This document shows positions 50,300 to 52,849 of a DNA stretch of 64,000 nt, piece by piece. The position numbers and the translations under genes are program-made. The notes under the pieces are model-generated. The model did no database searches and was not told the origin of the DNA. It worked only from the letters and a program-made list of their open reading frames with translations. The stretch is from an uncultured Bacteroidota bacterium. GTDB lineage: Bacteria; Bacteroidota; Bacteroidia; AKYH767-A; JABDAW01. Where the stretch lies: positions 1,428-65,427 of the forward strand of contig CAIMUP010000013.1 in NCBI GenBank assembly GCA_903844645.1, given 5' to 3'. Position 1 is the first letter of the stretch. Every line of letters starts with the position of its first letter.

Positions 50300-51544
50300 A
50301 TGAGAGCACTTGAGAAGAAAATGAAAGCCTATACCGCGCCGGAAGAAGTGAAGGCATTGGGGATTTATCCTTACTTCCGCGAGGTGGGTTCGGGGCAAGA
50401 TACCGAGGTGATGATCGAAGGAAAAAAAGTCCTTATGTTCGGCTCGAACAGCTACATGGGGCTGAATAATCATCCCGAAGTGAAGGCTGCCGCGAAGAAG
50501 GCGATTGATATGTACGGCACGGGATGTTCCGGCTCGCGTTTCTTGAATGGGACATCGGTTATTCACATCGAATTGGAGGAAAAACTGGCGAACTTTGTGG
50601 GCAAGGAAGCGTCCTTGGTTTTCAGTACCGGCTATCAAACAAACCTTGGCGTGGTGGGAACCTTGACGGGTCGGCATGATTATATTATTCTGGATGAATT
50701 GAATCATGCTTCGATTATTGAGGGCAGCAGATTATCGTTTTCGAAGGTCTTAAAATTCAGCCATAATAACATGAATGACTTGGAAGATTTGCTAAAGAAA
50801 TTACCTGCCGATAAGATTAAATTAATCGTTGTAGATGGTATCTTTAGTATGGAAGGCGACATCGCCAAACTCCCTCAAATTATGGCTCTTGCCGCGAAAT
50901 ATGATGCTGCCGTTATGGTGGATGATGCCCATTCATTAGGCGTTCTCGGGAAGACGGGTAAGGGCACGGCAGATCATTATGGTTTGACCGATCAGGTGGA
51001 TATGATTATGGGCACTTTCAGCAAGTCTTTGGCATCCCTCGGGGGCTTCGTGGCGGCGAATGCAGATATTATTAAATACCTTAAGCACCATGCCCGCGCT
51101 TTGATATTCAGTGCAAGCATTCCCCCTGCTTCTGCGGCTACCGCGATGGCGGCTTTGGATATTATTCAGCGTGAGCCGGAACGCATCGTGAACCTTTGGA
51201 AAAATACCCATTACATGATAGCGGAATTAAAGAAAGAAGGCTTCGATTTGGGCATTACCGAGACTCCGATTATCCCAATTTATATTCGCGATAACATGAA
51301 AACTTTTATGTTCACGAAGCGGCTGTTCGATGAGGGGATATTTGTGAATCCTGTGGTTAGCCCTGCCGTGAAAAGCGATTCTTCTTTGATACGAATTTCC
51401 CTCATGGCGACCCATACCAAGGAACAAATTGATAAGACGTTGGAGAAGATTTATATGATTGCAAAGGAACTGGAATTATTCGAATTTCAGGCGACAAATG
51501 CCGGCAATCATTCCAACCATGCTGGCGACGATGATAACTTATAA
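50300..51544 (+). CDS. alpha-oxoamine synthase family PLP enzyme (serine palmitoyltransferase / cysteate acyltransferase / KBL-like)
   Basis: It has [22 protein letters not shown] and the PLP-lysine motif [12 protein letters not shown]. The last 14 codons are encoded by repeat array K. Confidence 0.85.
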
Positions 51545-51691
51545 GGCAATGATGACGCCATTGCTGGCAATGATGACGCCAACGCCGGCAAAGACGACAA
51601 CTACGCTGGCAAAGATGACGTCTACGCTAGCAAAGACGACAACTTTGCTGGCAAAGATGATAGCTTTGCTGGCAAAGATGACAGCTACGCC
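51503..51691. repeat. Array K: 21-bp tandem repeat, 9 copies, starting inside the 3' end of the alpha-oxoamine synthase CDS
   Basis: The unit is ggcaaagatgacnnctacgct. Starts fall at 51503, 51524, 51545 ... 51671. The CDS stop TAA (51542-51544) occupies the seventh codon of unit 2. Confidence 0.9.
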
Positions 51692-51721
51692 ATCCCAAAT
51701 AACCTTAATAATGATATAATT

Positions 51722-52849
51722 ATGGAAATAACAATCAAAAAAGTCGAAAACGGAGCCGATAAGAAGAAGTTTATTGACTTCGTTCATGATTTATATGCCG
51801 ATGATCCGAACTATGTGCCTGAACTTTACATGGCGCAAAGCGATTTGATGAATCCTAAGAAGAATCCTTTCTTTTGGCATTCCAAGGCGGATCTTTTTCT
51901 TGCTGAACGCGATGGAAAAGTGGTAGGAAGAATCGCCGCCATAAGGAATAATAATTATAATGAATACGCGAAAACCAAAGTCGGCTTCTTCGGGTTCTTC
52001 GATGTTATAAATGATTATGAAGTGGCTAAGAAATTACTCGATACCGCTAACGATTGGATTAAAAAGGAAGGCTTGACGGACATTATAGGACCTACAAATT
52101 TCTCTACCAATGAAACTTGCGGCTTATTAGTAGAAGGTTTGGATTCTGCGCCTGTAATTATGATGACTTATAACAAGGCTTATTACAAAACCTTCTTAGA
52201 TAAATATGGTTTTACTAAGCAAATGGACCTGATTGCATACGTCCTGGACCCGATGGATATGCCGGAAAAGCTATTGCGATTAGCAAAAGGGATTGAGGAG
52301 CGTTTGAAGAGAAGAAACATTACCGTCCGCAAGATAAATATGAAGGATTTTAACAACGAAGTAGCCAAAGTAAAGGAAATTTATAATGCTGCCTGGGATA
52401 AAAATTGGGGTTTTGTGCCGATGACGGATGACGAATTCAAATTCCAGGCTAAGGATATGAAAATGATATTAGATAAAGACTTCGCGTATGTAGCCGAAGA
52501 CAACGGAAAGGTCATCGCGTTCTCATTAACTATTCCGAATGTGAACGAGGTGTTCAAAACCATCAAGCGGGGCAGGTTATTCCCGACGGGGCTGTTAAAA
52601 TTAGTATTAAATAAGAGCAAAATATCCAGCGTACGTGTGATTACATTGGGGGTGTTGGAGGAATATCGGAAGCTGGGTATAGACGTCGTGTTTTATGCTA
52701 AGAACATGGAAACCGCCCAACAGAAAAAACTTAAATATGCAGAGGCTTCCTGGATTTTAGAGAACAATAAGGAGATGAATTCTCCCTTAATTTCCATCAA
52801 TGCGAAGCCTTATAAAACATATCGTATCTTTGAGAAGAAGATAGTATGA
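51722..52849 (+). CDS. GNAT-like acyl-CoA N-acyltransferase superfamily protein (tentative)
   Basis: This 375-aa protein has an N-terminal region (…LAERDGKVVGRIAA…GFFGFFD) that resembles acyltransferase folds. Its stop overlaps the next start (ATGA). Confidence 0.55.
   Translation: MEITIKKVENGADKKKFIDFVHDLYADDPNYVPELYMAQSDLMNPKKNPFFWHSKADLFLAERDGKVVGRIAAIRNNNYNEYAKTKVGFFGFFDVINDYEVAKKLLDTANDWIKKEGLTDIIGPTNFSTNETCGLLVEGLDSAPVIMMTYNKAYYKTFLDKYGFTKQMDLIAYVLDPMDMPEKLLRLAKGIEERLKRRNITVRKINMKDFNNEVAKVKEIYNAAWDKNWGFVPMTDDEFKFQAKDMKMILDKDFAYVAEDNGKVIAFSLTIPNVNEVFKTIKRGRLFPTGLLKLVLNKSKISSVRVITLGVLEEYRKLGIDVVFYAKNMETAQQKKLKYAEASWILENNKEMNSPLISINAKPYKTYRIFEKKIV

Follow-up and report, generated by a model that had tools for sequence, protein, structure and literature searches.

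Our analysis of 64,000 nucleotides from an uncultured Bacteroidota bacterium (lineage AKYH767-A; contig CAIMUP010000013.1 of assembly GCA_903844645.1, positions 1,428 to 65,427; this whole stretch is referred to as the window) shows that spt, the serine palmitoyltransferase gene that opens a sphingolipid operon, is separated from the following gene for a GNAT-like acyltransferase by a tandem array of 21-bp units, array K, which comparison with relatives identifies as a young insertion into an ancestral 3-nt junction. The array is crossed by a candidate relay open reading frame (ORF) that lies in the +1 frame relative to spt and nearly touches both genes, and we lean, if only slightly, towards the view that K is a minisatellite tolerated because this ORF keeps the translation of spt and the acyltransferase coupled, the relay step being one that we infer from the placement of starts and stops. 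The original prediction had considered that the same spacer, which is open in the frame of spt, could mark a decayed or conditionally expressed fusion of the two enzymes; the orthologous junctions argue against that reading. The junction is composed as follows:

50300..51544, forward strand: spt, serine palmitoyltransferase (alpha-oxoamine synthase), 414 aa, assigned through the NCBIfam equivalog NF047600 SerpalmtaseCFB.
51497..51544, forward strand: tail of the spt coding sequence (CDS) in the register of array K, made up of 6 nt from the end of a pre-unit and of units 1 (GNHSNHA) and 2 (GDDDNL and stop); ~42-48 nt, the last 14-16 codons.
51542..51544, forward strand: spt stop codon TAA, ancestral by comparison with relatives, in a TTATAAG context common to loci L005 and L010.
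51545..51691, no strand assigned: array K proper, seven 21-bp units (u3-u9) delimited by the unit table and by Tandem Repeats Finder (TRF); a lineage-specific insertion.
51549..51719, forward strand: candidate relay ORF of 56 codons, MMTPLLAMMTPTPAKTTTTLAKMTSTLAKTTTLLAKMIALLAKMTATPSQITLIMI followed by a stop, in the +1 frame relative to spt.
51692..51721, forward strand: AT-rich right flank of 30 nt, occurring once in the window, which includes the stop of the bridging ORF (TAA 51717-51719).
51722..52849, forward strand: GNAT-like acyltransferase, 375 aa, probable bCerS, from a weak Pfam match to Acetyltransf_1 and from synteny.

Translation of 51440-51760 places the spt stop at TAA 51542-51544 and leaves a spacer of 177 nt before the acyltransferase ATG at 51722. 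Cut into 21-nt units from position 51503, array K comprises seven units and two degenerate ones, arranged head-to-tail at a constant spacing of 21 nt. Units 3-9 agree with the core consensus GGCAAAGATGACACCTACGCT at 16-19 of 21 positions and the flanks at 3-10, while the two units inside the CDS, unit 1 (51503) and unit 2 (51524), match it in register at 14 and 12 positions, respectively. When all 21-mers of the window serve as the null (mean 5.2, sd 2.0), matches of at least 14 and at least 12 positions have probabilities of 1.6e-5 and 2e-3, and a separate repeat search likewise found 51497-51534 to be in register with the array (61-74% identity). The assignment of the last 14 codons of spt to units 1 and 2 is thereby borne out, with the register running 14-16 codons into the CDS. 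Downstream, too, the sequence reads as had been described: past the TAA the spt frame continues for 59 stop-free codons, namely seven G(N/K)DDxxA heptads followed by IPNNLNNDII, up to ATG 51722; the two start codons, ATG 50300 and ATG 51722, are both 2 mod 3; and where the TAA stands the other units of the array carry GCT or GCC, that is, an Ala codon. The heptad peptide that read-through of the spt TAA would give is GNDDAIAGNDDANAGK. TRF reports 6.1 copies with 78% matches, and K is the most degenerate of the arrays. Four contigs assembled independently from other samples contain an identical array K, which is therefore not an assembly artefact.

The history of the junction becomes apparent from relatives. 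Five lineages (loci L005, L010, L008/9, L091/2 and L095/6; Spt identity to the window 93% for L005, 92% for L010 and 81-86% for the other three) share an array-free junction, TAA-GCY-ATG, with a spacer of 3 nt. The last 23 nt of the window's spt through the stop, CTGGCGACGATGATAACTTATAA, agree with those of L005, CTGACGTTGAAGAAGAATTATAA, at 16 of 23 positions, and unit 2 agrees with the terminal 21 nt of L005 and L010 at 14 of 21. Because TAA-GCY-ATG is common to the five lineages and unit 2 is orthologous to the relatives' terminal 21 nt, this alignment identifies the spt TAA as the ancestral stop and not a mutated Ala codon. On the same comparison, array K together with its 30-nt right flank is a derived insertion of ~175 nt, confined to one lineage and young. 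Across 51 spt-acyltransferase junctions of Bacteroidota drawn from GTDB, spacers range from -113 to +137 nt, occupy all three frames and in some cases hold an extra gene, and no junction is fused. Orthologs, to which the original prediction had pointed for fused versions and for the codon at the TAA position, thus offer neither a fusion nor a sense codon.

Array K is one of three arrays of the window located in short co-directional spacers, the others being arrays A (1838-2047) and G (41289-41435), and each of the three is crossed by an ATG-initiated ORF that abuts both neighbouring genes. The two sister ORFs are:

1791..2081, forward strand: bridging ORF of 96 codons over array A, in a spacer of 286 nt, with a TAATG overlap upstream and an ATGA overlap downstream.
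41256..41456, forward strand: bridging ORF of 66 codons over array G, in a spacer of 208 nt, with its ATG 4 nt past the upstream TAA and its TAA 3 nt before the downstream ATG.

The relay ORF of K has the same geometry, with an ATGATG 4 nt past the spt TAA and its own TAA (51717-51719) 2 nt before ATG 51722. Under a null model in which the array is kept, its phase rotated and its flanks shuffled, bridging has a probability of 0.012 for A and 0.026 for G, and among the ten co-directional spacers three bridged ones are seen versus 0.18 expected (P=5.6e-5). Relatives extend this pattern. Junction G measures 12 nt and is array-free in L097 (an 82% relative), so that array G is lineage-specific like K. 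A 72% relative, represented by L103/L104, has at junction A an array of 21/42 bp unrelated to that of the window, TTTCCGTTCATGGCACCAAGT; its two alleles measure 309 and 267 nt, and each is bridged (ATG 4 nt past the TAA, ATGA overlap; 102 and 88 codons; null P ~0.009); at this junction the open frame was kept through replacement of the array as well as through a change in copy number. In the loci fetched, bridging of co-directional spacers of 60-400 nt was found in 2 of 289 cases lacking an array versus 5 of the 8 that hold a period-21 array (Fisher P=1.6e-6, the two L103/L104 alleles being counted once). The only short array spacer of the clade that is not bridged is that of array I, which holds a full Bacteroidetes promoter consensus (50172-50203) and is for this reason probably an operon boundary; a search of L010 and L097 for further short-junction arrays returned none. 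As far as these sequences go, bridging ORFs recur at the clade's operon-junction arrays more often than chance allows. The repeats of the four encoded peptides, GIRGAQI, SSTTIMP, LAKMTxT and FMAPWIW, have nothing in common, which suggests that the act of translation matters and not its product.

We thus picture the junction as follows. A 21-bp minisatellite expanded at the ancestral 3-nt junction TAA-GCY-ATG of the sphingolipid operon. Ribosomes terminating at the spt TAA would reinitiate at ATG 51549 or 51552, translate array K in the +1 frame, terminate at 51717-51719 and reinitiate at 51722 to produce the acyltransferase, so that coupling otherwise lost would be restored. Naked spacer RNA is exposed to Rho-dependent polarity, from which a ribosome-covered spacer mRNA would be shielded. 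The relay peptide itself would probably be irrelevant, and since the 21-bp period is a multiple of three, changes in copy number would leave the relay intact. Apart from array K the junctions of the operon are tight, with 3 nt in the relatives at the spt-acyltransferase junction and an ATGA overlap between acyltransferase and reductase. It has been reported that coupling falls sharply with the distance between stop and start, and that fewer than 20 added nucleotides can already cut it substantially (PMC12548453). In a broader and more tentative proposal, which we consider possible but would not bet on, a process with a fixed 21-bp ruler operates in this clade and seeds arrays locally in most of the longer spacers; arrays at tight junctions would survive only as frame-preserving relay ORFs, and K would have been caught with its register reaching into the spt tail. 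If this were true, copy-number steps of seven codons could tune coupling without breaking the relay, and a route for sequence exchange between satellites and coding 3' ends would exist.

Several observations weigh against a relay at K. The bridging null for K alone yields P=0.137, and the inference leans on the sister arrays. The flanks of array A and of the L103/L104 array are partly homologous, so that the placement of their starts and stops is only partly independent and was possibly inherited, and only four cases are at hand. The gene starts at A and G are predictions; homologs support that at G, as they do the acyltransferase start. Array K exhibits no third-position excess in either frame 0 or frame +1, which fits an irrelevant peptide and equally fits no translation at all. 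Its copy number is invariant at 6.1 in all five contigs. Finally, the relay idea leaves the exact 21-bp period of arrays in convergent spacers unaccounted for.

The open frame that joins spt to the acyltransferase would also be expected from a conditional or decayed fusion, in which read-through or reversion of TAA 51542 connects the two proteins by an acidic G(K/N)DDxxA linker; such a product would be biochemically sensible, since in the Caulobacter pathway these enzymes act one after the other in the cytoplasm (PMC11087976). We nevertheless hold this fusion to be very improbable. It fails because the orthologs are unfused and in many cases overlapping or out of frame, because five lineages are array-free with an invariant, ancestral TAA and a 3-nt spacer, and because the spacer is devoid of codon periodicity: in a permutation test, unit variation in array K is distributed 6/8/10 by phase (P=0.86). 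The best 120 homologs of each protein are single-domain, with lengths of 393-431 aa for Spt and 354-393 aa for the acyltransferase, and array K as an inter-domain linker is, by these comparisons, ruled out. The K spacer contains no in-frame ATG, GTG or TTG, and frame 0 could therefore be translated only by read-through of UAA; the likeliest frame for translation is +1, on which the original prediction had not touched. Both release factors recognise UAA, and no other bacterial stop is as tight; a search for a suppressor tRNA in the window found none. A scan of JGI metagenomes that allowed any codon in place of the TAA gave no match to the junction, the organism being present in ENA and Logan assemblies only. 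The open frame itself does not exceed chance. Among the 66 reading frames of the 11 window arrays analysed, 34 are stop-free. When array K is shifted to random phases and its 30-nt right flank is randomised, an open upstream frame arises with P=0.27 and an open frame with an in-frame ATG with P=0.09. Of ten co-directional array spacers two have a length divisible by three (K and F), array F having a stop in each unit. The open frame and the frame agreement at K are within chance expectation, and the original prediction had itself cautioned that frame agreement has a 1 in 3 chance and that stop-free repeat units are common. Across the arrays, a hand tally counts open frames in 14 of 30 sense and 16 of 30 antisense frames; with no excess on the sense strand, the array class carries no general coding signature. 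What appears to be a hidden fusion of two sphingolipid enzymes is then a chance by-product of a repeat period divisible by three.

The frequency of open frames in arrays likewise favours a neutral spacer made by slippage, behind which the acyltransferase would initiate independently on the AT-rich 30-nt leader while the +1 ORF is coincidental. Bacteroidota rarely use Shine-Dalgarno sequences, and the centroid fold leaves most of the AT-rich right flank unpaired. The modest bridging probability of K, its degeneracy (78% matches, the most degenerate of the arrays) and its lack of copy-number variation, as in an old, decaying satellite, point the same way. We nonetheless regard such a spacer as rather unlikely, since every short operon-junction array of the clade is bridged, both alleles of the unrelated L103/L104 array among them, and since the gaps of 4 nt and 2 nt at K match those of the sister cases. 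More improbable still, though short of the fusion in this respect, is an element acting at the level of DNA or RNA (internal promoter, phased binding sites, curved DNA or structured RNA) that uncouples the downstream genes from spt. Unit 8 does hold a TAnnTTTG -7-like motif (51661-51668), complementarity between GCAAAG and CTTTGC of different units gives an RNA fold z-score of -4.7, and 21 bp correspond to two helical turns. The motif, however, has no -33 TTG at consensus spacing, and one TAnnTTTG per 177 nt is expected at P ~0.1; the z-score is inflated by repetition; an Rfam search of the array found no family; and no motif is common to the different arrays, so that no single binding protein fits. 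A relay through the +1 ORF accordingly remains our preferred, if only slightly favoured, reading of array K.

As to how array K arose, its expansion from the 3'-terminal coding heptad of spt had been suggested. In favour of this are the register overlap and the double nature of unit 2, which is orthologous to the relatives' spt end and at the same time resembles the array, agreeing with the consensus at 12 and with unit 8 at 14 of 21 positions. Among the 12 arrays, K alone has a register that overlaps a CDS (gap to the neighbouring gene -42 nt versus +16 to +355 nt for the others), and its left side is degenerate while its right edge is abrupt, a polarity reverse to that of most sister arrays. 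This arrangement fits a coding tail that seeded the array with rightward growth; alternatively, the array may have partly converted the tail. The seed itself cannot be pinned down, because the array units, when aligned locally with the junctions of L005, L010 and L008, which lack the array, scored no better than with random windows. A derivation of the units from the ancestral acyltransferase start region (GCTATGATAAC versus GCAATGATGAC) was considered and was not substantiated, the local alignment being at random level; a seed of 42 nt was rejected since the expected alternation of u1-like and u2-like units is absent from the unit identity matrix. The spt end of L005 and L010 holds ~30 extra nt (…PLPTDVEEEL) before the stop when compared with the …HTPKH tail of the L008 group, and hence the spt 3' end had already varied in length before array K.

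Array K belongs to a class of 12 intergenic loci with a 21-bp period (42 bp in one case) within the 64 kb, corresponding to ~190 loci per Mb and to most of the longer intergenic spacers. These loci, each of period 21 or 42, are:

1859-2044: array A
4111-4341: array locus
8711-8919: array locus
28847-29093: array E
37951-38213: array locus
41289-41426: array G
43869-44152: array locus
49949-50152: array I
51563-51690: array K
54399-54722: array locus
58018-58151: array locus
61985-62200: array locus

Within the window arrays the units match at 58-96%, with a period of 21 (or 42/63) and no common composition, and degenerate in-register units flank the arrays. Between arrays the units are unrelated: in the best rotation on either strand they agree at no more than 13 of 21 positions, the 99th percentile under the null. 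N1/N2 are the sole exception, and a comparison of the left boundaries disclosed no common sequence. In arrays of high identity the copy number changes by whole units between samples (window, L001 and L003), with 9.7, 7.7 and 6.7 copies of array I and 6.8 and 7.8 copies of array L (54580-54722), while the rest of the 17-kb overlap with L001/L003 is >99.6% identical; the L103/L104 alleles, too, differ by whole units, namely by 42 nt. Relatives of the clade contain other 21-bp arrays at other sites, and ~75 more distant Bacteroidota loci contain few and short ones. A dense set of unrelated 21-bp satellites in one lineage implies a length ruler. No description of 21-bp arrays in Bacteroidota was found in the literature searched, and this unusually dense satellite population is apparently undescribed.

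Further observations concern individual arrays. Arrays A, C, E, F, H and I display an abrupt, high-identity left boundary and a gradual rightward decay on the plus strand, a polarity that points to directional growth or conversion. N1 and N2 are inverted copies (18/21) inside a 125-nt inverted repeat (61934-62058 and 62115-62239) whose arms are 86% complementary and 56 nt apart; it lies between two minus-strand genes and could form a cruciform or hairpin. An ATG-initiated ORF of 161 codons runs through array E ((NKIPFSN)n; 28713-29198) and stops 7 nt short of the following gene's ATG; preceded by a promoter match at 28664, it is perhaps another translated array or a leader ORF. In the left flank of array I (49920-49975 and 50071-50126) the inverse complement of the first half of the unit occurs, GCCGACCG versus CGGTCGG, followed by T-rich unit sequence; the arrangement resembles an intrinsic terminator, and the 3' half of a terminator may have been the seed of the array. 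In L002, array I is interrupted by a discontinuity of 100 nt, possibly a scaffold gap. Upstream of spt, where the window has array I, L010 carries a 21/22-bp array (9824-9874) and L005 an inverted pair of heptamer arrays, AGTGAAA x4.6 and its complement TTTCACT x6 (4180-4211 and 4263-4304). Heptamer arrays with varied units are also present in several other Bacteroidota loci.

Among known systems, the closest to the bridged arrays are the MIRUs, for which an internal ORF translationally coupled to a flanking gene in operon junctions, with little effect on expression, has been described (PMC12548453). Both consist of tandem units between co-directional operon genes, and in both an ORF within the repeat abuts or overlaps the flanking stop and start. 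The MIRUs, however, constitute one dispersed family of related 46-100-bp sequences that is thought to be mobile, whereas here the unit is unrelated from array to array; that each array has its own unit is consistent with an origin from local sequence. In termination-reinitiation by way of short ORFs (PMC12548453), stop and start are likewise a few nucleotides apart or overlapping (TAATG, ATGA), and the sole role of the short ORF is to deliver ribosomes to the next start. The known relay ORFs are short unique sequences, whereas those considered here are arrays of 56-102 codons with length steps of 7 codons. Natural fusions and read-through of consecutive enzymes share with K adjacent genes, a common frame and a stop-free spacer, but at K the sampled diversity includes no fused ortholog and the stop is ancestral. 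Judged by its sequence, K is a minisatellite in an operon junction with a candidate coupled ORF. Satellites of this sort appear to settle in operons only where a small ORF leads across them from stop to start; if confirmed, this pattern would show how bacteria tolerate fast-evolving repeats inside polycistronic units, and would represent a repeat-based, length-variable form of termination-reinitiation coupling. It would also advise caution to annotators, since 'hypothetical' repeat ORFs may be translated for their position and not for their product.

With respect to the array class as a whole, Borg repeats (PMC9879509) offer the nearest parallel: they occupy many loci with unique units and flanking partial repeats, are of independent origin and turn over fast, their copy number varies in populations, and some start in ORF ends. 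They differ in being perfect and A-rich and in having many unit lengths, of which 14-38% among the intergenic repeats are divisible by three, whereas the window arrays have a period fixed at 21, degenerate units and a location on a bacterial chromosome, and the relay-ORF geometry is not described for Borgs. Bacterial variable-number tandem repeats and minisatellites, as treated in PMC4679880 and PMC6749651, share the slippage origin and the whole-unit steps, and heptamer-based periods, of which 21 = 3 x 7 is one, are over-represented (Mrazek 2007, cited in PMC4679880). In the survey of Subirana and Messeguer (2019; PMC6749651), a density above 4 satellites per Mb counts as rich. The window has ~12 loci per 64 kb, and a single fixed 21-bp period with unrelated units is not among what these papers describe.

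The genes of the operon fit the scheme of bacterial ceramide synthesis by Spt, bCerS and CerR (PMC11087976). Spt scores 684.8 bits versus NF047600 SerpalmtaseCFB (cutoff 640; residues 3-392) and contains Pfam Aminotran_1_2 at residues 43-384; the conserved enzyme ends at about residue 393-396, and the tail beyond differs among homologs in length and sequence. The acyltransferase homologs (354-393 aa) have the N-terminus M(I/V/F)T(I/V)KKVE and begin at the same point, which confirms the start at 51722 and the absence of an N-terminal extension. Two further features complete the operon:

50172..50203, forward strand: match to the Bacteroidetes-type promoter TTG-N17-21-TAnnTTTG, probable operon promoter, found by a regex scan as a consensus match only.
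52846..53853, forward strand: NAD-dependent epimerase/SDR-like reductase, probable CerR (Pfam Epimerase, 8.1e-28), with a 4-nt ATGA overlap with the acyltransferase.

Of 80 Bacteroidota species loci, 51 show the order spt-GNAT-SDR, and from this conserved synteny and the Pfam GNAT and Epimerase matches the second and third genes are probably bCerS and CerR; the GNAT protein has no match in NCBIfam, and the pathway may be one for sulfonolipid instead of ceramide. The promoter match lies between array I and spt, just past the array and ~100 nt ahead of the spt ATG. A scan for sigma-70 promoters and terminators gave results at shuffle level; for Bacteroidota that consensus is unsuitable anyway. 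Other genes or ORFs are preceded by similar full TTG-N17-21-TAnnTTTG matches, at 7617, 23816 and 28664. In a lineage with 86% Spt identity (L006 10001-12679, L090 and L093) the operon is broken: a gene of the Mur-ligase family follows spt, and the acyltransferase-reductase pair is located elsewhere, behind a pyridine nucleotide-disulfide oxidoreductase gene.

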